A stretch of 62,257 nucleotides of DNA, the filler included. It is 6 parts of 6 records of this genome, joined end to end, with 100 filler letters (N's around TTAATTAATTAA, not from the genome) between each part and the next. Parts side by side here need not be neighbours in the genome. Positions count along the whole stretch, not along the records: positions 38,047 to 43,321 come from SRR31147125_536; 5 more parts are not named here. One strand, given 5' to 3'. The notes beneath the pieces are model-generated. The model was given only the letters and a program-made list of their open reading frames with translations, ran no database searches and was not told the DNA's origin. The position numbers were made by a program, and so were the translations under genes. This document shows positions 5,548 through 54,374 of the stretch, in pieces (the stretch's first letter is position 1; every line of letters starts with the position of its first letter).

Positions 5548-5940
5548 TTATCTTAAATAGATAAGCCAAATCACACCAAACTGATCTTTTAAACTAAATC
5601 CAAGATCACTCCATCCTAGGGCCATTGGTTGATAATAAATGTTTTTAGCATCATGTTTTAAGACATCATAAGCGTGCATGATTTTTTCTTGCGACTGCAG
5701 TTCAACATTAACTGTAAATCGCAATTGATCAACATCAGGTTGTTCTCTTGCATCATTAATAAATAGTATCGCATCATCTATTGCTAACGCAGCATGTGCA
5801 ATACCATCATCACATGAATCCTCTATCATATCTTTATAGAGGGTGATTTCTCCAACATCTCTAGCGTGAAATGCATGTTTATAGAACATCATTGCTTTTC
5901 TTGCGTTATCTACACTAATAAATGGGAATATCTTACTCAT
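5548..5940 (-). CDS. VOC/glyoxalase (PhnB-like) protein
   Basis: PFISVDNARKAM.FY..AF, IAHAAL.I, LKDQFGVIW. Confidence 0.8.
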   Translation of the reverse strand: MSKIFPFISVDNARKAMMFYKHAFHARDVGEITLYKDMIEDSCDDGIAHAALAIDDAILFINDAREQPDVDQLRFTVNVELQSQEKIMHAYDVLKHDAKNIYYQPMALGWSDLGFSLKDQFGVIWLIYLR

Positions 5941-8900
5941 TATTTATCTCCTTTATTTTTGCTCTCATACGTCTTAACTCTTGATTAGGATTTTTATACC
6001 AATTACTTGAAAACACACGGTATATATGCCAATGTCTTGCTTTTAAGTATTTATCTAAATGCAATAATTCTTTCCTTGCATCCACATGCATTTCATCTGA
6101 TAGATCGCAAATAATACCTAAGACATATGATTGACGATCTCTATCATAAATCGCAAGATCTATTGTATAACCCCCAATACCTACATTTTTAATCACTTCA
6201 TAATGATTGCGCTCTAATCGTTTTTTAATATCTTCGGTCATTTGATGGCGTGCACTTATATTTAAAGTTTCTTGCTGATTACTTAAACTTAGTAATAATT
6301 TTCTTGCATCATCTTGTTGACCTTTAGAGATGAAGTAACAATATCTCATGTAGTCCTTTAATAATTTAGGTCCAACACTACTAAGGTCATCGACTTTTAA
6401 CTCTTCTGGGTATAGTGAACTTACAAAATATATTTTTTGTTTTGCCCGACTAATCGCTACATTTAATCGATTTTGTCCACCTTCATTATTTAACCATCCA
6501 AAATTCCTTTTTACGATACCATTAACATCTTTTGCATAACCCATAGAGAAAATAATAATATCTCTTTCATCCCCTTGAACATTTTCAATGTTTTTAATAA
6601 ATAAACTTTTATCTTCTTTATCTTCAGTTCTAAATAATTCTTTTTCAAACATTTTTTGATATTTTCCACTTTTAAATAATGCTTCATCAACAAGATTTTC
6701 TATTAGATCTCTTTGTGTAGCACTAAATGTGATCACACCGATTGTTTCATCATTTTTTCGTGTTTTAAAAATATGTTTTAATAAATTTATTACTTTTTTA
6801 GCTTCTTCAACATTTCTTCGATGTTCAAATACACCATTTTTTACATAAACATATTCAATAGGTGGCTTTTCCATATGGTGTTGATTAGGTGATACGATGA
6901 GTTTCCCATCATAAAAAGCGTGATTAGAAAATGCAATAAGTTCTTCATAAATAGATCGATAATGATAGTTAAGCACAGTTTCTTGGTAACGATATCTTGC
7001 TAAATCTAATAAACTTTTTGCGTCTTTTGATATATCTTGGAGCACTTCACCATCATCATCGTTATGTTCTGATATTTTACCAATACCTAAACTTGATGGT
7101 CTTAATTGTTTCGTATCGCCAGCAATGACAACTTTTTTAGCACGATAAATAGCAGGAATACCTTTTTCGACATACATCTGACTCGCTTCATCAAAAATTA
7201 CAATATCAAACATACCATAAATCAGTGGCATAATCGTACTCACAACTTCTGGTGTCATCATCCATATGCGCACATGATGAAACAATTCTAATTGAAATAC
7301 ATCAATAAATGATTTAATACTCATACGATTTTGTCCATCGATGACACGTTTGATGTCCATAACTCTTTTCGTATTAGAAAAGCCGAGTGCTTCTTGATAT
7401 AAACTCATGTTAAATGATTCAGTATTCACTTGTTTTTTTGCTGCGATTAATTGATTAAGTTGATTGAGTTTTTCTTCATGTTTTTCTAGTATGTATAAAG
7501 ATGATTGACGTTTTGCATAAAAACTTTCTAGGTAACCTGTATAAAACGCATCAAACAAGTATGTTCTAAGGTGACCGACATCTTCAATTTCTTGAAGTAG
7601 TGGTGCATCAGATAACATATCTAAAAAAGTTAAATGATACGAATCTAATTGTTCATACTTCGTTCTAATACGGTTTAAATCATTTAAATGTGTAAGATAA
7701 TATGTATGAAGTTTTTCATCTTTAAATAATCGTTTAAAATATTTCTTTATAAATCTATTTTTATGAGATAAAAATGAAAGATTTTTAATGTGTGTGTTTA
7801 TCAATGATTGTTTAAGTTTTCGACGCTTAAAAAACCACGTGTGTTTAAGATCATATTTAAATGATTCAAAGTCTTTTGAAAAGTCTTTATAAATTAACTT
7901 TTGACTTCTTGTTAGTTTTGATTCAATTTTAGATAATAAAGGATAGCTTCTTAGCATCTGATGATATAACAGATATTCATCTAGATGTTTCTTTTGTTTA
8001 AAAATCTTTTCTATGTCTTCTAAGCAATCAAAATCAATATGCTTAAAATACTGTGTAAACATTTTATGTACATGAAGTGGCAACAAATCGTCTTTTATAT
8101 CTTTATCAACAACATATCGATGATATAGTGTATATGCTTTTCTGCCTTGTATTTCTTCAAGATACATGGATTTTAGGGATGCATCAAAAGTTTCAATCAA
8201 CGCATGTATTTGTTCTTCGATATCAAAGACATCATTGTTCCTAGTGCGTGTTGGTGGCATCGGATCAATAAAGCTTTTTAATTGGTCATAAAAGACTTGT
8301 TTATTTTGAGCATCATCAATAAACATCGCATATTTTGATGCATCTTTTAATCTTGAATATATCACATCTAGTGCTACTTTTTTCTCACTTATCACAAGTA
8401 CTTTTTGATGATTGAGTATGCTTGAAGCAATTAAGTTCGTAATCGTTTGACTTTTACCAGTACCAGGTGGTCCCCAAATGACAAGTTTTTCTTCTTGATT
8501 AAGTAGATCTATAACTTTTTCTTGTGAAAAGTTTAAATCAGATATATATGAAATATTTGATTCCTTAATTTTTAAGTGGTCAATTGAAAAATCACGCTGA
8601 TCATCAGCATATAACCCTTTTTCATCAATCAATCCTTCAAGTAATTTATTATATTTATTAGATGCAAGTATTTGATTAATATCTTTTTGTATCATTGATG
8701 CATATAACTGATATGTCCCTAGCGTCATAAATGATCTTACATTTATTTTGTTTTTAGTGCGTTTTAAAAAATCTTTCTTTAATTCATTAGAAAATGGTTC
8801 AATCGTTAATTGTTTTATTTTATCTTTTATCACAAGTCCATGAGACTCATAAAATGGGATAACAACATCGTTTAAATGTTTTAAATCAAAGTCTCCGGTA

Positions 8901-9658
8901 AAACTAGTTTTTGACTCTATAACGCTTTTTTCCGCCTTTGATAATGCCAGCAATAAGTCTCTATTATATTGGATATCTTTGTCTTTATCTTTTTTAATCA
9001 CAAATACTTTTTTAGTACGCATAAGTTTTACTGGAAAAAACAAAAGCGGTGCTTTAATCATTAAATGTTCTTTGGGTTTTGATAATTCAACAAATGGATA
9101 AGCGATATATAAATCATATGAACCAGTTTCTCTATTCACCTGATTGATATGTCTATATAGTTGTGTCAAATCATCAATCTCATCATTTAAAAGCACTTGA
9201 TCTTTATCATTAATTGTAATTTTGGAAACACGTTTGTTTGTTAAAAAATTAAACCACTTAGATGCCATATCTATACGATTTAAGTCAAGTGTTTTTTTCT
9301 TACTGATTTTACCCATATATAAATTTGTGTTTCTCTTTGATATATTCGTTAATCTATCTTTATAATGATCTAGAATTTTATATGCGTGCTTGGAAACACC
9401 TACCTCATCAATATGTTTTTGACTTTCATGCATGATGACTTGTAAAAAGCGATATGCATATTGATCCATGAATGTTTTATTAATGCCTGAAATCGCTAAA
9501 AAATCGCTTGTTTTAAGCGGTTTTTTGATTGCAATCTCTTTTAATGTTTCATCAGAACATATAAAGACATCTTTGCCAGTAGATTCATACATTTCATGTT
9601 TGATTGATTCTCTTAATGCATCAAGTGCATCAAGTAATTGATCTCTTTTTATTGCCAT
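5933..9658 (-). CDS. HRDC + DUF4011 + SF1 (UPF1/DNA2-like) helicase + C-terminal Vsr/REase-like domain
   Basis: N-terminal HRDC-like LDALR..VFICSDETLKEIA.KKP..LAISGI; DUF4011-like RLTNISKRN, APLLFFPVKL; GPPGTGKS, DEASQ, AGDTKQL, HYRS, IENVQGDERD, RLNVAISRAK; tail GGYTIDLAI..LGIICD..W.IYRVFS.NW. Confidence 0.85.
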   Translation of the reverse strand: MAIKRDQLLDALDALRESIKHEMYESTGKDVFICSDETLKEIAIKKPLKTSDFLAISGINKTFMDQYAYRFLQVIMHESQKHIDEVGVSKHAYKILDHYKDRLTNISKRNTNLYMGKISKKKTLDLNRIDMASKWFNFLTNKRVSKITINDKDQVLLNDEIDDLTQLYRHINQVNRETGSYDLYIAYPFVELSKPKEHLMIKAPLLFFPVKLMRTKKVFVIKKDKDKDIQYNRDLLLALSKAEKSVIESKTSFTGDFDLKHLNDVVIPFYESHGLVIKDKIKQLTIEPFSNELKKDFLKRTKNKINVRSFMTLGTYQLYASMIQKDINQILASNKYNKLLEGLIDEKGLYADDQRDFSIDHLKIKESNISYISDLNFSQEKVIDLLNQEEKLVIWGPPGTGKSQTITNLIASSILNHQKVLVISEKKVALDVIYSRLKDASKYAMFIDDAQNKQVFYDQLKSFIDPMPPTRTRNNDVFDIEEQIHALIETFDASLKSMYLEEIQGRKAYTLYHRYVVDKDIKDDLLPLHVHKMFTQYFKHIDFDCLEDIEKIFKQKKHLDEYLLYHQMLRSYPLLSKIESKLTRSQKLIYKDFSKDFESFKYDLKHTWFFKRRKLKQSLINTHIKNLSFLSHKNRFIKKYFKRLFKDEKLHTYYLTHLNDLNRIRTKYEQLDSYHLTFLDMLSDAPLLQEIEDVGHLRTYLFDAFYTGYLESFYAKRQSSLYILEKHEEKLNQLNQLIAAKKQVNTESFNMSLYQEALGFSNTKRVMDIKRVIDGQNRMSIKSFIDVFQLELFHHVRIWMMTPEVVSTIMPLIYGMFDIVIFDEASQMYVEKGIPAIYRAKKVVIAGDTKQLRPSSLGIGKISEHNDDDGEVLQDISKDAKSLLDLARYRYQETVLNYHYRSIYEELIAFSNHAFYDGKLIVSPNQHHMEKPPIEYVYVKNGVFEHRRNVEEAKKVINLLKHIFKTRKNDETIGVITFSATQRDLIENLVDEALFKSGKYQKMFEKELFRTEDKEDKSLFIKNIENVQGDERDIIIFSMGYAKDVNGIVKRNFGWLNNEGGQNRLNVAISRAKQKIYFVSSLYPEELKVDDLSSVGPKLLKDYMRYCYFISKGQQDDARKLLLSLSNQQETLNISARHQMTEDIKKRLERNHYEVIKNVGIGGYTIDLAIYDRDRQSYVLGIICDLSDEMHVDARKELLHLDKYLKARHWHIYRVFSSNWYKNPNQELRRMRAKIKEINNE

Positions 9659-24699: not shown

Positions 24700-24799
24700 N
24701 NNNNNNNNNNNNNNNNNNNNNNNNNNNNNNNNNNNNNNNNNNNTTAATTAATTAANNNNNNNNNNNNNNNNNNNNNNNNNNNNNNNNNNNNNNNNNNNN
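24700..24799. other. Artificial contig spacer
   Basis: N44-TTAATTAATTAA-N44; stop codons in all six frames. Confidence 0.98.
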
Positions 24800-27429: not shown

Positions 27430-28062
27430 TTAAACTCTACGTCTACGTTTTCTACGCGCAGAGCCACTATTTGAATCAGTAAACGAACCGACTGGCACCA
27501 ATTCTGTCGGCAACTTTGGTTTAATTGGTCCAGCTTTTTTTATTGCATTTTTATCACATATACCAATAAGTTTCTTAACATCTTTGCTGTCGTATTTTTT
27601 CAAAATGTGTATCATGCCATTTTTGCCTTCTATTGAATCCGCACCGAAGCATTCCTTGCACGCTCCACATCCAATACAAATAACTGGATCAATATACAGC
27701 GAAAAGCTCGCTGGGCATACTAAGTTTGTACACGCTTTTCTAATAATGTGTTTATCCCACTCATCTTCATATGTTTCCATCATATCCGCGCAGATTTGAA
27801 AAGCCTCTTTTGTCATATCGCAGGTTGTATTTTCTTTTGAAACAGCAAGGATATCTTTCAACAATTCATAATCCCCTCTTTGAGGATTTCCTTTTACAAT
27901 ATCAGATATAATGACGTAAATTTGTTTACAGCCTTCTCTGCTGAATACACAATTACTATCAGATTCTTTGACTGCTGTTTCCATCACTTTCAAACAATAA
28001 TCCACAGGACAGGCGTTATCTTCACTCCATACTGGGAAGAGATTATTCTTATTCACAGTCAT
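27430..28062 (-). CDS. NuoF/HydB C-terminal-like Fe-S protein with a degenerate N3 motif
   Basis: CPVD, KESDSNCVFSREG (versus ESCGKCTPCREG), HI..K.C..LVC, CIGCGACKEC. Confidence 0.72.
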   Translation of the reverse strand: MTVNKNNLFPVWSEDNACPVDYCLKVMETAVKESDSNCVFSREGCKQIYVIISDIVKGNPQRGDYELLKDILAVSKENTTCDMTKEAFQICADMMETYEDEWDKHIIRKACTNLVCPASFSLYIDPVICIGCGACKECFGADSIEGKNGMIHILKKYDSKDVKKLIGICDKNAIKKAGPIKPKLPTELVPVGSFTDSNSGSARRKRRRRV

Positions 28063-30139
28063 TTACCTCCCTGACATTTTTATAGTGTTCATCCACCCAA
28101 AACTTAACTTTTTCAATATCCAATCTTAAATCACATTGCAGACATCTTGATGTTTCATAAGTAGCATCACATGAACTTTCCAAGACTCCTTTTCTCTTTA
28201 ACTCAGCAAAATTCTCTAATTTCCCAATGCACCCATCAACCTTATCTCTTTTCAGCAATACATCTTCAATCTGTCCATTGCCTCCTAAATACTTATCAAT
28301 ACTTTTAGCAGCGTTTCTGCCTGATTCAATCGCTTGAACAACTGATTTTGTACCGTATACTACATCACCGGCAGCAAATATATTATCTACACTAGTTTTA
28401 AGTGTTTCATCTACTTTTGTATAACAACCCCTTACAACATCTATACCGAACTCTTCATTCATATCTGGTTTCTGTCCAGTTGCAAATATCATCCAATCTA
28501 CAACTAATTCAGACTCTGATCCTTCTATTTCATCAGTAACCAAGCCATCTTTTGTAAACTCAAATCGGCTGATATCTTTGGTTGTAACGGACTTAATAAT
28601 GTCATCTTTCTCATCTATATTTGATATGATCTTTCTATTCAATATTTCTATCCCTTCAGAAAGACCTAAAGCAATTTCTTCTTCATCAGCCAACATTTTT
28701 TCTCTTGTTTCCATACAAATCACGCTAACATTTTTTACACCTTTTTTCTTCGCAGTAATTGCACAGTCAAAAGCAACATTGCCGCCTCCATAAATTACAA
28801 TATTATCGGGTAAATCTTTTAGCGCGTCTTTGTTGCTGGCTTCACAAAAATTAACAGCATCCATAGAATTTTTCCACCGTTTTGCAAAGCTCGGCGGTCT
28901 TTTACCCTCTGTTGCACCAATGGCAATCAAAGTTGCATCATAGTTTTTTTCCTTCAAATCAGCGATTGACTCAATTTTAGTATCGTAAATAACGTTTATT
29001 CCAAATTCTAAAAGTATGTTGATCTCATTTTCTACGATAGACTGAGGCAATCTATACCTCGGGATACCGAAAGACAGCATACCGCCAGCCCTATTTTGTT
29101 TCTCATATACATCCACGTAATATCCTTTTTTGGAAAGATAAAACGCAGCAGTCATGCCAGCCGGTCCACCGCCAATAACAGCTACTCTTTTCTCGTTTTT
29201 ATCATAGACTGTTACATTTTGCTTCCAGTTTTCAGTTTTATCATTTTCAACAGCAAATTTCTTTGCTTCTCTAATTGAAATTGCTTCATTTAGATGTGTT
29301 CGTTTGCATCCACTTTCGCACGCATGTGTACAAATATACCCCAAAGAATGCGGGAAGGTTAATTTTTCTCTAATAACTGACACAGCATCAGAATATTTTT
29401 CTTGACCAACTAATCTTAAATACGTTGGAATATCAGCATGCGCTGGACATTCATTTTTACACGGTATATATGCTAAACCCCTTGGCGCTTCCGTCTTAAA
29501 AATACCCTTAACATCCTGAATCGCACCTGTCGGACACACTTCTACACACGCGCCACAATATCTACAATCAATATCTGTCAGCTTTTTATCATCTACTGTT
29601 CCAATATAAGATTCACTATTTTTTTTGTTGACTTTAAGCACTCCAACGCCTCTGACGTTTTCACATACTCGTACACATCTTTCGCAGTGAATACACCTTT
29701 GCATCTCACGCTTAATAAAACAGTCTGATTTCACTTCAAAAACATGCTCTTTTTCAATCTCTCGCATTCTAGAATGTACTACACCAACGTACTGCATAAG
29801 TGCTTGTAGTTCACAGTTCAGATATTTATCACACGATGTACAGTCTTTTGGATGGCTCGCCATCATCAATTCAAGTGCCAAACCTCTTACTTTTTCCACA
29901 TTTTTAGACTTTGTGCTAACTACCATATCCTGCTTCGCAATTGTTTCGCATGATTTGATAATACCCTCAACACCCTCAATCTCTGCTACACAAAGATTAC
30001 AATTGCCAAATGGCTCTAGATTAGGGTGATAACATAGATGCGGAATATAGATACCAGAATTTAAAGCAGCATTCAAAATGCTCGTTCCTTTTTCTGCTTC
30101 AATTCTGTATCCGTCAATTGTCAGTTGAATATTTTCCAT
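28049..30139 (-). CDS. Fusion of a NuoG/HydA-type Fe-S module with a GltD/PreT-type FAD-NAD(P) oxidoreductase
   Basis: IPHLC..C.LC..C, HPKDCTSC..C, CIHCERCVRVC, CRYCGACVEVCP, CKNECP..ICTHACESGC, IGGGPAG, GGGNVAFD, FAAGD. Confidence 0.88.
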   Translation of the reverse strand: MENIQLTIDGYRIEAEKGTSILNAALNSGIYIPHLCYHPNLEPFGNCNLCVAEIEGVEGIIKSCETIAKQDMVVSTKSKNVEKVRGLALELMMASHPKDCTSCDKYLNCELQALMQYVGVVHSRMREIEKEHVFEVKSDCFIKREMQRCIHCERCVRVCENVRGVGVLKVNKKNSESYIGTVDDKKLTDIDCRYCGACVEVCPTGAIQDVKGIFKTEAPRGLAYIPCKNECPAHADIPTYLRLVGQEKYSDAVSVIREKLTFPHSLGYICTHACESGCKRTHLNEAISIREAKKFAVENDKTENWKQNVTVYDKNEKRVAVIGGGPAGMTAAFYLSKKGYYVDVYEKQNRAGGMLSFGIPRYRLPQSIVENEINILLEFGINVIYDTKIESIADLKEKNYDATLIAIGATEGKRPPSFAKRWKNSMDAVNFCEASNKDALKDLPDNIVIYGGGNVAFDCAITAKKKGVKNVSVICMETREKMLADEEEIALGLSEGIEILNRKIISNIDEKDDIIKSVTTKDISRFEFTKDGLVTDEIEGSESELVVDWMIFATGQKPDMNEEFGIDVVRGCYTKVDETLKTSVDNIFAAGDVVYGTKSVVQAIESGRNAAKSIDKYLGGNGQIEDVLLKRDKVDGCIGKLENFAELKRKGVLESSCDATYETSRCLQCDLRLDIEKVKFWVDEHYKNVREVNDCE

Positions 30140-31129: not shown

Positions 31130-31229
31130 NNNNNNNNNNNNNNNNNNNNNNNNNNNNNNNNNNNNNNNNNNNNTTAATTAATTAANNNNNNNNNNNNNNN
31201 NNNNNNNNNNNNNNNNNNNNNNNNNNNNN
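31130..31229. other. Artificial contig spacer
   Basis: N44-TTAATTAATTAA-N44. Confidence 0.98.
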
Positions 31230-37946: not shown

Positions 37947-38046
37947 NNNNNNNNNNNNNNNNNNNNNNNNNNNNNNNNNNNNNNNNNNNNTTAATTAATT
38001 AANNNNNNNNNNNNNNNNNNNNNNNNNNNNNNNNNNNNNNNNNNNN
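37947..38046. other. Artificial contig spacer
   Basis: N44-TTAATTAATTAA-N44. Confidence 0.98.
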
Positions 38047-38068
38047 TGTGTGTGTGTGTGTGTGTGTG
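38047..38068. repeat. (TG)n microsatellite inside an intron at the contig start
   Basis: About 11 TG units ending just before a CAG acceptor at 38078. Confidence 0.9.
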
Positions 38069-38078
38069 CGTGCGGCAG

Positions 38079-41000
38079 AGGATAAAGGTTTACCTGGCTC
38101 AGGTGACTAATAATCTACGTGCCATGGAGGAGAGCGGTGTGGAAGATCCCGAAGCGTACAATTGTTTGTTGGGAGAGCGAGAAACCATCTTGAGCGCACT
38201 TCAGTCCCTTACTCCTAGCCCCGTGGTTATTGAATTCTGCAAACTGGTGCGTTGGTTTGTTGGTGTTGTCATTCTCCTGAAGAGTCTTTCTGCTATAGGT
38301 ACAACTACGCGATTTGCTTGGACTCCAAGAATTCGAACGACAATTGGCAGATTGGAAGGCTCCTCTGGTGAATGAGGCAATCAGCAGCCGCGCTCTTGCA
38401 GTGGAACAGATCCGTGAATGGTTTGTGTATGTGTTTTTCCACTTGGCAGGTGATTTCATTTTCGTGTAGGCGGCACGGTTCCATCTCTCAAACAACTGAG
38501 GAAGCTCGAATCACAGCGGACATTATTCGCTACTCGCAGGTCATCGATCAGGTAGCCTTTCCTCTCCTCTATTGTGTGTCTCACCCCACTTCCACTTCCA
38601 TAGTTCAACATTCGCCCAGAACACTTCTGGCGAGAGATCATCAACATTGACAGGCTGCGCCGAGAGATTCATGATCACTCCCTGCTGCCCTTGACAAGTA
38701 CTGAGTTGGAGGATAGTTATTTGTTCCTTTTGAACGCGGGGATTCCTGTGGAGGTGTGTGTGCGAGGGAAGGAACGATACGCAAGGGACTGAGGACGGAT
38801 GCAGATTCTTAATGGTGACCAGTTAAATATGCCCCGGGACTTTCTCAGTCGTGTCTTTGCAAAGTGCGTGTCCCCATTGTGGGCGGGACTCACCCTCCCC
38901 ACTGTCAGATGTGATGGATCTCGCCCCCTATTCGTTGTCTCTGTCTTGGGTCCTCAGAGTTCGGCCAAGTCAACCTTGATGAATGTCTTGTTTGGATGCC
39001 GTTTTCCTGTTAGTGCAGGGAGGTGTACAAAGGGTGTTAATGCCACTCTTCTGCGGTCCGAGGCAAAGAATGCAGGTGCCGGAACGGATGGACAGGTGGA
39101 CAAGAATCCTCTTACCCTCCGCGCCTCGTCTTAGATGACCTATTGATTTTGGACGCCGAGGGGCTGCTCTCCGTGGAGAAGGCGGATCGCAGCTTTGATC
39201 GACAATTAACGCTGTTTGTAACTTCTCTGTCCAATGTGGTGATTGTAAATGTCAAGGGCGAGATTGGAGATGAAATGCGCGAAATCATTGAGGTACGTCC
39301 CAAGGTCCTCCCAGTAAGTAGCCCATACTCATTTGCTTTTCTTGCAGATTGCAGTGTATGCTTTGGAGAAGTTGACCCTGCTGAAAGTTCGGCCTCGTGT
39401 TCTTTTTGTGCTTCGTGACATGATCTCTGCGGACAAGGAGAAACAGGTGGGTAGGAGTGGTAGTGGAGAAAAAGGAGGAGAAAAAGGAGGAGGAGGAGTT
39501 ATTCACCACGGGCCGCAGTTCAATACACGACGTTTGATTGAAGAATCCTTACGATCTGCTGTAGCGGAGGTCGGTGGAACCTACACGCTCGAGGACCTGC
39601 TGGACTTTGATGTAGTCGATAGCTTTGATCTGATGTGTCAAGGATTCAATCAGGTCTGTTGCGCCTGCGGGCCTCTATCGATCTAACAGTGTTGTTGATA
39701 GGTTCGTACGAATATATCCGGGGACACAGTGCTGGTCCCCGTTCCGAATCCACAATTCGGCGAGCAATGCTACACGGTTCGACGCAAGATCTTTGACTAT
39801 GCAGTGAAAACAAAGAAGCACGGAGCCTTTGCCGACCTTCACCAGTGGTATGTCACGGTTGTTTCTATCCTGCGTTCAATGCCTTTCTTCTTTCAGGATG
39901 ATCCACGCCGAAACCGTGTGGACGACTCTTACCCAATTCCACAGTCTTATTCAGTACAACAACTTGTTAGAGTTGAAGCAGAAACGATACCTTGCTAAGG
40001 TGTGTGGTGGCGTACGTGTGTGACGGCCCATTCCCCCAACGCCTTGGCAGGTCTTCTACTCTCTAGTAGACAAACACATTCACGAGGGATTCACCCAGAA
40101 GTTTGCTTCCTTACGACGTCGGTGCGTCTGCGTCAGCCACAGCTGGTCACAGTTCTCCCATTTGCTTGTGTTTGCACCCAGATATCGGAAGAAGATTATG
40201 AAGATCCGGAATGAACTGCAGCTGAATACGATCTTGGAATCTGAAACGGTTTGCTACTCTGGCCAGGCTAGTGTTGTCCCTGAGAAATCCATGCCAGGGG
40301 TTGTCCATCACGAAGGCACGTGATCGAGAGGCAGCGATTCGGAGCCAATTTGTCGATAAGAAGGACGAACTGTTCAAGGAGCTTGAGGTCTGTCTCTTTG
40401 TCGATGTTTCGCATCCCACCTCCACCTCACCACCGCCTCAGGCCATGACACGCGACTTCGAGGCACAAACCAAGGATATGCCAAGGCTGCTTGTGGAGTC
40501 CTTCCGTGCAACGCTCAACCAGCAGGTACACCTCCTCCCCGAGATGCATCTCTCCTCGTGACGTTATCTTCCACAGATGTACAAGGCAAGAGATGTTGCT
40601 GAGCGGACGGCCATGCTGGACGACATTGACTTTAAGCTGGAGGTCGTACCACCGTTGTGTTGTTGCGGTGTTTTGATGGGATGTTGGTCATGGTTAGGCG
40701 CTCATTATGAGAATGTTGGAGGACCTGTTGAAGTGGGTAGATGAGAGCTTCCTTATCAACCTTAAGAAGGAAGGCATGTGTTGAAATGATTCTTGAATTG
40801 GCCGTGTGTGATGCGAGGCTTCTGCAGGGGGACGGATCACGGATAGGGTTCTCGCTGAATTCAACAGCATCTGGGACACGGACGAGCGAGAACTGTGTGA
40901 TGTGATTCGAGAGTTCTTGAAGGTGCATCAGTTTGTGAGAAATGTATACCCTTGCGTGACCCTTGTGTCCATCCAGCCCGAAACACTTGATCTGGATCAA

Positions 41001-43293
41001 GTTGTAACGTCACTTTTTGAGCTGTACATGATGACGGTTTGTGGGGACGCGCCCACGGGATGCAACACCAGGCTCAGCCAGCATCATCTGCATGCAGGTT
41101 CCCGACGCACCCACTGTGGCAAATCGCATTGTAGAACGATCTAACACATTCCAAACCATTTCCTACGGGGCCGTGCGCAAGTATCTCCAGGAGAAGAGAA
41201 GTTCCAACACTACAACGTACATTATTGTTGTTTGTCTGCTCTTTCGTGAGGTAACAGGTAACCTTGCCACCAGACGGGCGGAAACCCCTTCCGAAGAGCG
41301 TTTCCAGGCACTTCTTGATGATATTGCAGAGTTTGTGAATGGCATGGTGCGAGAGAATCGTCTCTCCGACTTTAGCTTCGTCACTGTGGCGGATGCCATC
41401 CATTCCCTGCAAGACTTCATGAACGTCAAAGAGATCGAGTTCATTCATGTAAGGAACTGCACGTGTGCGTCGTATGATCTGACAACACATGCAGGACTTC
41501 CGTCTGGGTTTCTCGTTGGAGTTCACTGCACGCTGTATGGTCCTTCTTCGTTTTGAAGTTATTGGCCAATTCATTACATTCTTTGAACGGAGGCTCACAA
41601 AGCATCTCCAAGCCTTCCGCGAGAGCAAAGAGAAACAACTCAAGTTGCTTATGTTCTTGAGTGAAGAGGTACGATGCATGTGTGTGTGCTGCGGTGTGGC
41701 GGTAGTGTCCACAAATACGTATAAGGTGTTGGGTGATTTCGAAACTGCCGAATTTCTCGTTCCTGTTATGCGACGTAACATTATGGATGAAGCACAACGA
41801 AGGTAGGCGATGCGGTGCGGTGTGGTGCGGTGCGGTGACACTTCCAAGATGGAACGAAATCTACATGCATGAACTGCGCAAATCAACGGAATTGAAACCT
41901 GCCGATCTGTTGGAGGTGTGTGCGTCCACGGATCGTTCTTTTCTCGGGGGGGAGCGGGCATCACGACGCAGTACAACAGAGGCAGAGATCAAACGGCAGT
42001 CAGGGTGCGAGAAGAGCACCATGGAGTGTACACAATTCATCATTCCCTGGACACTCAGATGGATGTTGCGTTTTCGTGAGCTTGTGTCGGACCCGCTCCC
42101 CATTATGAGGCGAACGTTTGCCGAGCTCTTCGAGACCCAACGGCAAAACGTACTGACCTCAGTCAATCAACGATTTCAAAGGTTGGCTGGCATGTCCACT
42201 GGGTCGCATGTCTCACCTTCTCTTTTTTGTGTGTGTACAAGGGAACTCCAATCCTTAATGGAGCGTGTCACGATCCTCGTGAACAAATGGCTTTCTTCCT
42301 TTTCAAAATTCAATGAGATTCGACTAAAGGTGGAGAGTCAGGAGAAGCGACCCAAAGAGGTGCTTCCTGCCCTCCCTTCCCCTCCTGTGCGTCCATTCAC
42401 TGCGGATACAGGTGGACACAATGCTTGCTATCACGTATGAGATGCTCTATCAAAGTCTTCGAGCCTATCTAACACAATACTCTCAATGTGAAGTGATCAA
42501 GGTGCGATTCGTCCTTCATTTTTGGCGTGTATCCTGAATCCTTTCATCCCAGTCCAAACTCATGACGATGTGGGGGAATCACATCTTCCCCTCTCCTGAC
42601 GATCTGAGCGATCCAGGCGATGCCATTCCCTTCCTTATGATTGGATCTCCCAAAGGTTTGTTGGTGCACGTAGATTCGAGGGCATAACTCGCAACAGGTG
42701 GCATGTTTGTTGTGAATCCCCGAGATTTTGGAGATAGGTTACTGGGATTGCTGACGGTAAGGCCCAGCACAGCCCCTCGCCGCCGGAACTGACGTCCACG
42801 TTAGGGATTGGGAGAAACAGCGCAGGTGATCCCCGATTCCGCTGCCGTGCAGTCCTTGTACTCTTCTCTTCTTGACTACGCACTGGCAGGACATCAGGTT
42901 GGGTGTCTGTTCCAAAGGATAGACACGAAACTCACACCCTCTATGTGTGGAAGGATTTGATTCATCGTCTCATGGCGTGGATCCCAACTGCGGAACGGGA
43001 GCTTCTGATTGAAGATGGCAGCATTCTTGAGGAGGAGTCGTCCAATGCAGAAACGCTTGCATTCCATCCTATCCACGAGGGGAAGATCTTGTCGAACACT
43101 ATGTACCTCTCATTGTTCGACGCACCGTGGAGTTCATTAACACCAAAGGTGGTACCTCTGCACGGTGTACGGCTGTGGTGAGTTGGTGATCGTGATCCTT
43201 TTGTTTGTGCAACAGGCCTCAACGTGGAAGGTCTCTTTCGTGTTCCTCCATCCAAATCACTTGTCCGGAAGTACGAGCAACTCTTTGCACAGG
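38079..43293 (+). CDS. Eukaryotic multi-exon gene (partial at both ends): VLIG/GVIN/URGCP-type very large GTPase with a C-terminal RhoGAP domain
   Basis: Removing about 33 short introns (e.g. 38247-38298, 38421-38469, 38552-38603, 38754-38804, 38864-38908, 39076-39134) gives EHFWRE, GIPVEILNGD, VVSVLGPQSSAKSTLMNVLFG.RFPVSAGRCTKG, ILDAEGL, FDRQL, IVNVKGE; last exons read VPLIVRRTVEFINTKGLNVEGLFRVP. Confidence 0.85.
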
Positions 43294-43321
43294 GTTTGTG
43301 TTTCGCGTCATCCTCGACACA

Positions 43322-43421
43322 NNNNNNNNNNNNNNNNNNNNNNNNNNNNNNNNNNNNNNNNNNNNTTAATTAATTAANNNNNNNNNNNNNNNNNNNNNNN
43401 NNNNNNNNNNNNNNNNNNNNN
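43322..43421. other. Artificial contig spacer
   Basis: N44-TTAATTAATTAA-N44. Confidence 0.98.
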
Positions 43422-48897: not shown

Positions 48898-48997
48898 NNN
48901 NNNNNNNNNNNNNNNNNNNNNNNNNNNNNNNNNNNNNNNNNTTAATTAATTAANNNNNNNNNNNNNNNNNNNNNNNNNNNNNNNNNNNNNNNNNNNN
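48898..48997. other. Artificial contig spacer
   Basis: N44-TTAATTAATTAA-N44. Confidence 0.98.
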
Positions 48998-51803: not shown

Positions 51804-54374
51804 ATGAAAAATTATTTACTGTTCATTATTGTTGGGATTTTATGTCTTTTTGGACAAAAATCCTATTCTCAAAGCCAGTTCCATGCTGATGATTATATTC
51901 AGTATGTACAGAATAATCAGGATATGAGTGGCGAGGAAATACAGCTGCGCTATGCTCCTGAAACGCCATATTATTCAACAAGAGAGGATCTGTTAAAGCT
52001 CGGCCAGTTTTCTTTTCTGGATTCCATATCACTGAAATACAGGCTCACGGAATCCGAGATGGATTTACTGGCTAAAAACCATTTTGTTGTCACGGAGCGT
52101 TTAAACTTTAACTGTTTTGGCGCGGCTTTACATGATATCTATATTAAAGACCTGCCTGTTTGCGTAACAACAGACGCTATTTTGCAGGCTCTGCATGCGT
52201 CGTATGACAAAATACTCATGAATTTGGAAGCTGGTATTTTGGAACCGAATTTGATTCGGTTTCTTGAAGGGCTTTATAATTCTTATTCTCAATTGCTGAA
52301 AACACATGCAAAGAATCCGGATCTGCACGATGCACTGGCGGATGTGGATATTTATGTGACGCTGGCGAAATCTCTATTGGAAGGTAGTCTGGTTGCACCG
52401 AATTATGCCAGTGTTGACCAGGTCAATGCCTTGTGGCGGGCCGTACATGATGAAAGACAGGTTGATATGCCTCTGTTTTCGGACAGAAATCGTCACCTGG
52501 ATTTCAGTCAATTCACGCCACGAGGGCATTATGCCGGAGAACACTGGGGCTTTTATGGTAAAATTGAACTGGAAAACTATTTTAAAGCCATGATGTGGCT
52601 TGGCAGAATGGATTTTCTACTCACACCTCCACCTGCGAATCCATGGGAAGAACCCTGGACACGTGACGAAATACGGCGAATGAATCTTGGCGCTGTGCTT
52701 TTGAATCAATTGATGGATATGGCAGGCGTAAAAAGTCTACTGGATGAAAACGACGAGATCATCACCTTTCTGGTGGGCGAAAGTGATAATCTGACCCCAA
52801 ACGAGTTAAGTGAGCTGATCACAGAACTAAACATCACAGCTGATAATCTGTTAAATGATACAACCTACGATGCTTTCCAGGCTGCTTTGGTTGCATCGGC
52901 GGAATATGGTCAACGTATTCTGTCCAGTTTTTTTCTCATGGATCCTTATAGCACGGAACCGGATCCCCTGCCTGTATCCTATCGCCTGATGGGGCAGCGT
53001 TTTATCATCGATTCCTATGTACTGGGTAATGTGGTTTACGATCGAATTATATATAATGGTAAAAAGGTATGGCGCCCCATGCCGGATCCTCTGGATGCCA
53101 TGTTTGTATTGGGTAATGACAATGCATTGCCGTTACTGGCAGATGAGCTGGAGTCCTATAAATATGCCTCCCAGCTTGATGCTTTACGGTATCTTGTGGA
53201 TGCGTATGATGATAATTTTTGGGGTGTGTCTTTGTACAATGTCTGGTTGCAGGCTATTCGGTGTTTAAATCCTGTTGAGGATTCGTCCGCATTGCCCTAT
53301 TTCATGAACACCGTTGCCTGGCAACAGGAAAAGCTGAATACGCAGCTGGCATCCTGGACTCAATTACGACATGATAATTTATTATACGCTAAACAATCCT
53401 ATACCGGTGGCACGGGTTGCTCCTTTCCTCACTCTTTTGTGGAACCTTATCCGGCTTTTTATAAACAGATTGCCGATTTTGCAGCCAATGCAGAGAGCTA
53501 TTTTGCCGGATTGCCATCTGAGAGCGGTATGGTGAGATCCATTCAGAGATATTTTCCGCGTCTCAAGGAAACCATGCTCAAGCTGGAGATACTGGCGCAA
53601 AAAGAAGTGAATAACGAGGCTTTTACTGAGGAAGAAAAGGATTTCCTGCGAAAAATGCTGTTTGTGGATGGTGCCAGTGGTGCGCCACCGTTTTCCGGAT
53701 GGTATGCCGATTTGTATTATGTTCCTGATGACGCCGCTTTGGGAGATTATATTGTTGCCGATGTCCATACACAGCCAACAGATGCCAGTGGTGCTGTAGT
53801 CGGCCGGGTGTTACATGTCGGTGTCGGCGATATCAATCTCGGTGTTTTCCTGGTGGAATCTTATTCCGAAGCAGGTGTGCCCATGGCTTTTGTCGGTCCT
53901 GTAATGTCTTATTATGAAAAGATCACAGATAATTTTCAACGCCTGACAGATGAACGCTGGACAGAGATGGTCCTGGCCAATGATTTACCAATACGACCCG
54001 ACTGGGTGAATATCTATCTGGCTGATGAAAAAGGGCAAGCCAGGTTAAAGGGCAGAGAATTGCCGGGTGATGTTTATACCGGATCCGGTATCGGTCCCTT
54101 GCCAGTACCTGTGGAATTTAGCCTGGAACAGAATTATCCGAATCCCTTTAATCCCGGAACAACCATTCGTTATGTTTTACCACAGCACGATTTTGTGACA
54201 GTGACCATATATGATATTCTTGGCCGCCAGATTGAGACTCTGGTGAGTGAAAATCAGTTTGCCGGACCGCACAGTGTTAATTGGGTTGCGCAGGGCCTGC
54301 CCAGCGGACTTTATTTGTGTCGGGTACAGGCGGGAAAGTTTAATCAAATGATTAAAATGATGTTGATGCAATAG
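51804..54374 (+). CDS. DUF3160 protein with a C-terminal T9SS-type-A-like sorting domain
   Basis: P..VTTDAIL..LH..YD, DFSQFTPRGHY, YFKAMMWLGR, MGQRF..DS, LNTQLASWTQLRHDNLLYAKQ, RLTDERW; tail FSLEQNYPNPFNP.TTI.Y.L..LPSGLY. Confidence 0.88.
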   Translation: MKNYLLFIIVGILCLFGQKSYSQSQFHADDYIQYVQNNQDMSGEEIQLRYAPETPYYSTREDLLKLGQFSFLDSISLKYRLTESEMDLLAKNHFVVTERLNFNCFGAALHDIYIKDLPVCVTTDAILQALHASYDKILMNLEAGILEPNLIRFLEGLYNSYSQLLKTHAKNPDLHDALADVDIYVTLAKSLLEGSLVAPNYASVDQVNALWRAVHDERQVDMPLFSDRNRHLDFSQFTPRGHYAGEHWGFYGKIELENYFKAMMWLGRMDFLLTPPPANPWEEPWTRDEIRRMNLGAVLLNQLMDMAGVKSLLDENDEIITFLVGESDNLTPNELSELITELNITADNLLNDTTYDAFQAALVASAEYGQRILSSFFLMDPYSTEPDPLPVSYRLMGQRFIIDSYVLGNVVYDRIIYNGKKVWRPMPDPLDAMFVLGNDNALPLLADELESYKYASQLDALRYLVDAYDDNFWGVSLYNVWLQAIRCLNPVEDSSALPYFMNTVAWQQEKLNTQLASWTQLRHDNLLYAKQSYTGGTGCSFPHSFVEPYPAFYKQIADFAANAESYFAGLPSESGMVRSIQRYFPRLKETMLKLEILAQKEVNNEAFTEEEKDFLRKMLFVDGASGAPPFSGWYADLYYVPDDAALGDYIVADVHTQPTDASGAVVGRVLHVGVGDINLGVFLVESYSEAGVPMAFVGPVMSYYEKITDNFQRLTDERWTEMVLANDLPIRPDWVNIYLADEKGQARLKGRELPGDVYTGSGIGPLPVPVEFSLEQNYPNPFNPGTTIRYVLPQHDFVTVTIYDILGRQIETLVSENQFAGPHSVNWVAQGLPSGLYLCRVQAGKFNQMIKMMLMQ

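Follow-up and report, generated by a model that had tools for sequence, protein, structure and literature searches.

A VLIG/URGCP-type giant GTPase gene fragment with a likely C-terminal RhoGAP domain on a eukaryotic contig in a bacterial draft assembly

Background

The very large inducible GTPases (VLIG) and the URGCP-type proteins related to them are giant members of the dynamin superfamily, and the locus described here raises the question of whether such a protein can be encoded, within one gene, together with a RhoGAP domain, a regulator of Rho-type GTPases. The locus is a contig of 5275 nt (positions 38047-43321) with one gene fragment, on the + strand and cut at both ends, and it lies within a stretch of 62,257 nt, the window, which is the whole of the DNA that was analysed. 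An earlier note on this DNA had spliced by hand a single open frame from a VLIG/URGCP-type G domain through a long helical region into the start of a RhoGAP domain with its arginine finger, and had proposed an immune-type GTPase of a microbial eukaryote, of an unfamiliar architecture and with two junctions, near 41980 and at 43018-43079, that seemed to need unusual splice sites.

We report a curated gene model for this contig, its comparison with relatives and known systems, and the alternatives to the fusion. We consider it likely that the contig holds a fragment of one eukaryotic gene for a VLIG/URGCP-type giant GTPase of the dynamin superfamily with an appended C-terminal RhoGAP domain, interrupted by some 31 short GT-AG introns. 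If this is true and an active RhoGAP domain does stand at the end of the full gene, this would be the first VLIG-type giant GTPase found joined to a Rho GTPase regulator, among the 131 relatives listed and the literature searched, and the fusion would offer a testable hypothesis for the effector function of a poorly understood family, a human member of which has, according to the abstract of a preprint discussed below, only recently been tied to blocking actin-based bacterial motility. In practical terms, the locus also shows that a bacterial draft assembly is contaminated with eukaryotic DNA and appears to contain a 1-nt assembly error.

Gene model and splicing

The gene is invisible in a plain list of open reading frames (ORFs), as the earlier note had pointed out: no long + strand ORF lies in 38047-43321, only short stop-to-stop pieces, many of them coding-like. 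Evidence on splicing comes from two public runs of one sample, here called X1 and X2, which hold parts of the contig and neither of which is on record as RNA. The X1 contigs are unspliced, with a word depth on our contig of about 1-3 and zero cover over several parts, including 42447-43150. The X2 evidence is an independent assembly (Logan contigs), all seven pieces of which are intron-less, and each of the 15 joints listed is GT..AG on the + strand, so that 15 introns of 42-67 nt are skipped exactly. Two of the breaks between X2 contigs fall exactly where exons begin (42954 and 40977), from which we infer that the assembly graph branches at splice sites.

The curated model draws on the 15 X2-supported introns, on weight matrices for splice sites that these introns served to train, and on alignments of homologues. 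Two scored gene models were merged by hand using the homologues and the X2 joints; the second of them had wrongly removed two homologous parts of the G domain, 39387-39437 and 39702-39788, as introns, and a naive model that maximised coding length was discarded after it had read through introns. The result has 32 exons, which measure 59-200 nt with a median of 96, and 31 GT-AG introns, which measure 42-72 nt with a median of 52. It forms a single open frame over 38103-43293, of 1169 codons, without a stop, where the other two frames have 57 and 63. The one-frame reading proposed before is thus borne out, with X2 backing 15 of the 31 introns.

Exons 1-5 (38103-38863, + strand) precede the G domain and match VLIG homologues as well as the Pfam profile URGCP_GTPase in its N-terminal part; introns 38421-38469, 38552-38603 and 38754-38804 within them are skipped by X2 contigs, as is intron 38864-38908, by one X2 contig. 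The core of the VLIG/URGCP-type G domain follows in exons 6-8 (38909-39446), recognised by Pfam, by tblastn with 11 homologues and by alignment with 131 homologues, and the 72-nt intron behind it (39447-39518) is backed by a gap in 99% of those 131. Exons 9-30 (39519-42897) encode a long, mostly helical region; X2 contigs skip ten of its introns, all of which lie between 41037 and 42804. At the far end, the last exon is followed at 43294 by a probable donor, GTTTGTG, which resembles three confirmed GTTTGT donors, so that the contig probably ends inside an intron.

Two observations on the same stretch may be added. At 40314 one X1 contig (depth 2.8) has G where the window has A, a difference of strain or allele or an error. 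An antisense ORF of 300 aa (41074-41976, - strand) lies opposite coding exons, belongs to no family (the only match is DUF6673, E 0.026) and was set aside as a shadow ORF.

The G domain and the helical region

The assignment of the gene to the VLIG/URGCP-type giant GTPases, and not to the GBP, atlastin or RHD3-Sey1 proteins, which are related members of the superfamily, is firm. The Pfam profile PF25683 (URGCP-like GTPase) matches the ORF piece 38793-39134 at E 2e-15 and 56.9 bits, with a cut-off of 55 (profile positions 159-232), which puts chance likeness far out of reach, and continues on 39041-39418 (E 9e-6, positions 239-300). Pfam matches to dynamin were weaker, and those to PF05879 (RHD3-Sey1; 19 and 18 bits, cut-off 42.4) and PF02263 (GBP; 11.6 bits, cut-off 21.1) fell below their thresholds. 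A profile built from eight homologues of about 1600 aa finds one domain in the curated model, at E 9e-97 and 310.8 bits, with positions 479-1302 of its 1626 lying against model residues 36-841. Because this match starts at 479, the fragment begins some 480 residues into a VLIG-type protein, the N-terminal part of about that length lying off the contig.

The motifs agree with this classification. The P-loop GPQSSAKS (38949-38972) is followed by GRCTKG, with the CTKG of switch I, by LDAEGL, with its DAEG, and by LRD, and the first three stand in register with the consensus GPQSSGKS, GRCTRG and LDTEGL of 131 relatives. The second glycine of the P-loop is replaced here by alanine, as it is in 10 of the 131, glycine being found in the other 121; an X2 contig covers the alanine-bearing P-loop without differences. 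The G domain had thus been correctly named, whereas the description 'immune' is a label carried over from the animal members of the family and not a result obtained here.

Beyond model residue 841, up to which the VLIG profile aligns, the last 280 or so residues before the RhoGAP-like start have no detectable relatives. A helical piece of 170 aa (41850-42359) found no match at E<=0.001 among 1.84 billion representatives. Pfam returned only weak chance matches on the helical piece (UvsY, MepB-like), and the dynein-tail-like clusters offered by the Atlas search, with a recognition of 1614, were too weak for use.

The junction with the RhoGAP-like exons

Whether helical region and RhoGAP-like peptide belong to one gene turns on two introns and the exon between them. 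A 56-nt GT-AG intron in phase 0 (42898-42953, + strand) separates the last exon of the helical region from exon 31 (42954-43148), which encodes a linker peptide and then, from 43106, the first 14 RhoGAP-like residues (PLIVRRTVEFI...); a 67-nt GT-AG intron in phase 1 (43149-43215), within the RhoGAP-like domain, leads to exon 32 (43216-43293), which encodes GLNVEGLFRV... with the putative arginine finger in the codon CGT at 43239-43241. From about 42470 on, X2 record 13 (313 nt) passes over four introns, that at 42897|42954 among them, and ends 27 nt into exon 31. X2 record 14 (258 nt) begins at 42955, takes in exon 31 (aligned over 42955-43146), crosses 43148|43216 and goes on for 65 nt into exon 32. 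The records share about 24 nt, with no loose ends reported at that place. Both introns of 42898-43215, the stretch for which the earlier note had called for a spliced alignment, are thus skipped by X2 contigs, and the spliced reading is in frame when the run of G at 43079-43082 is read with five letters.

These records bear on two rival explanations. Under the first, two genes would adjoin, a VLIG-type gene that ends, by retention of the intron, at the TGA of 42958-42960 and a RhoGAP gene that starts at the ATG of 42972. It is true that the unspliced frame of the helical region stops at this TGA, that an in-frame ATG follows 12 nt on, and that X2 contigs break at the boundary of exon 31, as expected of a graph holding spliced and unspliced forms. 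However, record 13 is spliced across 42898-42953 and stays in frame on entering exon 31, no stop interrupts the spliced reading before the end of the contig, and an intergenic spacer of 12 nt would be extraordinary, and we regard two genes as very improbable. The second rival, a chimera assembled from a VLIG-type gene and a RhoGAP gene of different loci, could appeal to the low coverage of the contig and to the lack of X1 cover over 42447-43150. Against it, the independent Logan assembly of X2 reproduces the sequence on both sides of 42954 in contigs that overlap, and of all the alternatives a chimera seems to us the least credible, close to negligible.

The two junctions for which unusual splice sites had been proposed have simpler explanations. 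Exon 31 begins in the frame of the helical region and the RhoGAP-like peptide lies, from about 43082, in the -1 frame. At the G-run between them (43079-43082, + strand) the window has four G and the X2 contig five, the additional G being inserted behind 43078 at a depth of 8.34 in one contig; over 42955-43146 this one gap is the only difference, with no other letter changed. With five G the linker peptide passes smoothly, in one frame, into the RhoGAP-like peptide; with four G the frame is also open to the end of the contig, but all RhoGAP likeness is gone. What had been taken for an unusual splice at 43018-43079 is thus a 1-nt indel and not a splice, and the junction looked odd because the contig in the window is probably one G short. 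Other canonical splice routes into the RhoGAP frame, which would join the acceptor at 43050 to a donor either at 42978 or close to 42944, were dropped because record 14 covers 42955-43146 without a joint. Near 41980 no unusual site is called for either, since the frame is open whether or not one removes an in-frame GT-AG intron of 66 nt that is predicted there (41916-41981) and is optional.

The indel admits a further rival: the genomic copy may truly have four G and be a pseudogene or broken allele read in the frame without RhoGAP likeness, with the five-G contig of X2 derived from another allele or a paralogue. The window contig does have four G, X1, the run with unspliced contigs, has no cover at this place, and nothing in the contig penalises a broken allele, given that the four-G frame stays open to its end. 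Yet the X1 word depth of about 1-3 makes a 1-nt assembly slip plausible, though not proven, the X2 contig is otherwise identical over 42955-43146, and the RhoGAP-like reading, improbable by chance, is confined to the five-G frame. We hold a pseudogene or broken allele to be improbable, and prefer to read one gene with five G at this position.

The RhoGAP-like start

Several searches agree on the family of the terminal peptide. Pfam finds PF00620, the RhoGAP profile, on 43182-43321 (E 6.8e-4, 20 bits, profile positions 10-42 of 148). A search of the PDB gave only two matches, both of them chains of p190RhoGAP (5irc_A and 3fk2_A), and both align the arginine of their GIYRV with that of GLFRV in the window (codon 43239-43241); we take this aligned arginine to be the catalytic finger of RhoGAP. 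In the Atlas search all 30 of the named matches were RhoGAP clusters, with a score of 0.93. Furthermore, once the intron is removed, the spliced exon 31 supplies the pattern expected of a RhoGAP start (P-hydrophobic x3 ... acidic-aromatic-hydrophobic) exactly 14 residues before GL..EG.FR. This pattern, set by hand and not derived from a tool, has a single match in the model; the probability of meeting it by chance at a given position is 9e-7, and 22 of 20000 shuffles contained it somewhere. On these comparisons the RhoGAP-like stretch is very probably the true start of a RhoGAP domain.

Several points weigh against reading the contig as one VLIG-type gene with an appended RhoGAP domain. The PF00620 score, although beyond chance for a single query, is below the Pfam cut-off of 24.5 bits, and it was obtained on an unspliced ORF piece in which the first five aligned residues are encoded by the intron; the true exon of 27 aa alone and the upstream exon of 22 aa alone gave no Pfam or PDB match. 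The E-values of the p190RhoGAP chains, 0.46 and 0.63, are not significant by themselves, and the Atlas recognition of 2263 is slightly below its mark of 2300. Only about 40 of the roughly 148 RhoGAP positions are on the contig (profile 1-42), some 100 residues falling beyond its end. As for the model, 16 of the 31 introns are predicted only, the stretch between 40698 and 40976 is uncertain, X2 is labelled 'DNA?' and not recorded as RNA, so that its intron-less form could formally be DNA, and no single X2 contig connects the helical region with the RhoGAP exon. The extra G comes from one contig only, at a place where X1 has no cover, and the function proposed below, with its self-assembly, Rho/Rac shut-off and actin remodelling, is reasoned entirely by analogy.

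The low Pfam and Atlas scores, the single exons without a match and the mere 40 residues in view are what one would cite for another rival, namely that the likeness is chance or a degenerate remnant, a divergent C-terminal tail with no GAP domain after it. Three independent scorings (Pfam, PDB and Atlas) nevertheless agree on the RhoGAP family, and removal of the X2-supported intron brings the expected start motif to precisely the right distance; a tail of this sort we judge unlikely, to about the same degree as a broken allele. We accordingly keep to the beginning of a RhoGAP domain. The claim of a RhoGAP start with an arginine finger stands in so far as the peptide resembles the first third of the domain and its arginine aligns with that of p190RhoGAP; with about 40 of some 148 positions on the contig, it does not extend to a GAP domain that is complete or active. 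The rest of the helical domain of a RhoGAP includes a conserved asparagine that positions the substrate and would here lie past the end of the contig.

The RhoGAP piece, in a word-based search of longer proteins, returned three candidates, none of which gave a score, and PF00620 was absent from the genome G001 and from 14 control genomes.

Origin of the contig and its neighbours

The window consists of six draft contigs joined by five identical artificial linkers of 44 N, TTAATTAATTAA and 44 N (24700-24799, 31130-31229, 37947-38046, 43322-43421 and 48898-48997, without strand), and as a concatenation of separate contigs it lends no meaning to gene adjacency across the linkers. The linkers on both sides, the contrast in GC (0.503 in the contig of the VLIG-type gene against 0.307-0.402 in the other five) and the bacterial genes on the flanking contigs mark 38047-43321 as separate and eukaryotic. 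There is no physical link between this contig and bacterial DNA: it is a eukaryotic stray that ended up in a bacterial draft assembly through binning or concatenation. Such a stray does not bear out the 'microbial' in the 'microbial eukaryote' of the earlier note. The nearest named relatives, in sponges at about 30% identity, do not place the contig. It starts with a (TG)n microsatellite (38047-38066, no strand), probably intronic, within a stretch flagged as repeat (38047-38081), and an attempt to extend it with an exact 48-nt pattern gave no match in genome_contigs and none in metagenome_contigs.

The neighbouring contigs have long unbroken ORFs with bacterial families, among which are a YifB Mg-chelatase-like ATPase (663 bits), a sorting-tail protein of the type IX secretion system (T9SS), a glutamate-synthase/hydrogenase-like oxidoreductase and glycosyltransferases. 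A helicase-like ORF of 1241 aa (5933-9658, - strand) has strong partial matches to models of the anti-phage protein ProA (E 1e-149, 500 bits) and of Hhe, far under their full-length cut-offs of 1500 and 2000 bits, and may be a defence-type helicase of its bacterial contig. The protein with the T9SS type A sorting tail (856 aa, 51804-54374, + strand; E 8e-11) suggests, by this family match, that its contig comes from a Bacteroidota-like bacterium, and genes for anaerobe-type oxidoreductases are found on other contigs of the window (28049-30139).

Possible function

The RhoGAP-like start would sit roughly where VLIG-type relatives end, with its first 40 or so residues, putative arginine finger included, on the contig. 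Proteins of the GBP, atlastin and GVIN types undergo nucleotide-dependent self-assembly. By analogy with these relatives, the VLIG-type G domain and its helical stalk may assemble, depending on nucleotide, on a membrane or particle; the tethered RhoGAP, through its arginine finger, would then speed GTP hydrolysis on nearby GTPases of the Rho/Rac type and switch them off locally, and actin structures at the site of assembly might in turn be dismantled or remodelled.

A broader conjecture, which we think doubtful but worth stating, is that in non-animal or early-branching eukaryotes the VLIG-type GTPases are a modular chassis with swappable effectors (RhoGAP, ubiquitin repeats, VWA or MORN), of which the RhoGAP version might couple the assembly of a coat on a phagosome, symbiont or pathogen to the shutting-off of Rho/Rac and actin, as an ancient form of the interference with actin described for human GVIN1.

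Comparison with known systems

Relatives of the G domain were sought in two ways. The G-domain exon found 11 longer proteins, at 39-52% identity and named 'interferon-induced very large GTPase 1-like' in a sponge, and PF00620 was in none of the 11. A profile of the G domains from three metagenome loci and of the exon in the window matched 504 proteins in a search that is biased towards relatives of those loci and covers proteins of up to 2000 aa; among the matches listed (the best 120 of the 504) PF00620 was in none of the 120 VLIG-type relatives, some of which carry ubiquitin (PF00240), VWA (PF00092, PF13519) or MORN (PF02493) domains. The named sources among the matches listed include several Paramecium species, bdelloid rotifers and sponges, and with several Paramecium species among them the VLIG-type family is already known in protists. 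By the titles and abstracts of the matches listed, the literature search gave nothing on a VLIG-type GTPase combined with RhoGAP or on VLIG architecture. The impression of an unfamiliar architecture was therefore justified within these searches.

With the GTPases of the VLIG, GVIN and URGCP types the gene shares the P-loop GPQSS[G/A]KST, GRCTKG and LD.EGL, as well as homologous regions on both sides of the G domain; identity with the best relatives is 25-39% where the alignments are longest, at some 270-655 residues, and up to 49% over a fragment of 149 residues. Unlike the 131 relatives listed, none of which has PF00620, the gene in the window has a RhoGAP start appended.

The nearest metagenome loci (L001-L003) are intronless, in contrast to the approximately 31 short introns here; the G domain of L001 and L003 has 60-65% identity with ours over the P-loop exon and 29-37% over 190-340 aa. 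Locus L001 (1-6753), an open frame of 2250 aa without introns, has two ubiquitin domains upstream of the URGCP GTPase, and L003 (1-4953; 1650 aa, likewise intronless) has the GTPase with a C-terminal VWA domain. Both resemble the gene in the window in that the same G domain is joined to an unrelated accessory domain, and differ from it in the nature and position of that domain and in their low GC (0.31-0.34). The other strand of L003 (5609-7507) has a gene for a eukaryotic-type arginyl-tRNA-protein transferase. Three further loci (L005, L006 and L007) of genome_contigs, in a Gracilibacteria metagenome-assembled genome (MAG), a Hydrococcus MAG and Gillisia marina, gave weak G-domain-like matches (41-50% over 26-46 aa), which may be dynamin-like GTPases of bacteria or else contamination.

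On the RhoGAP side, p190RhoGAP (5irc_A, 3fk2_A) is alike in the start of the domain and in the stretch GL..EG.[FY]RV, with the arginine aligned, and differs just behind it, where it reads RVSGN and the window RVPPS. The usual N-terminal partners of a RhoGAP domain are signalling modules; here the partner would be a giant dynamin-like GTPase. Human GVIN1, likewise a giant GTPase and a bearer of this family name, is not known to have a GAP domain fused to it. It is distant from the gene in the window, to which we liken it by description, for its link to actin. The abstract of the preprint on GVIN1 reports that this protein coats Burkholderia and interferes with actin-based motility, and the word 'RhoGAP' does not occur in the main text of that preprint (bioRxiv 10.1101/2025.03.24.645074). 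Set beside the ubiquitin, VWA and MORN partners of its relatives, the RhoGAP partner, as read from the sequence, is probably a new element in the modular VLIG-type family, and the domain combination a new one.

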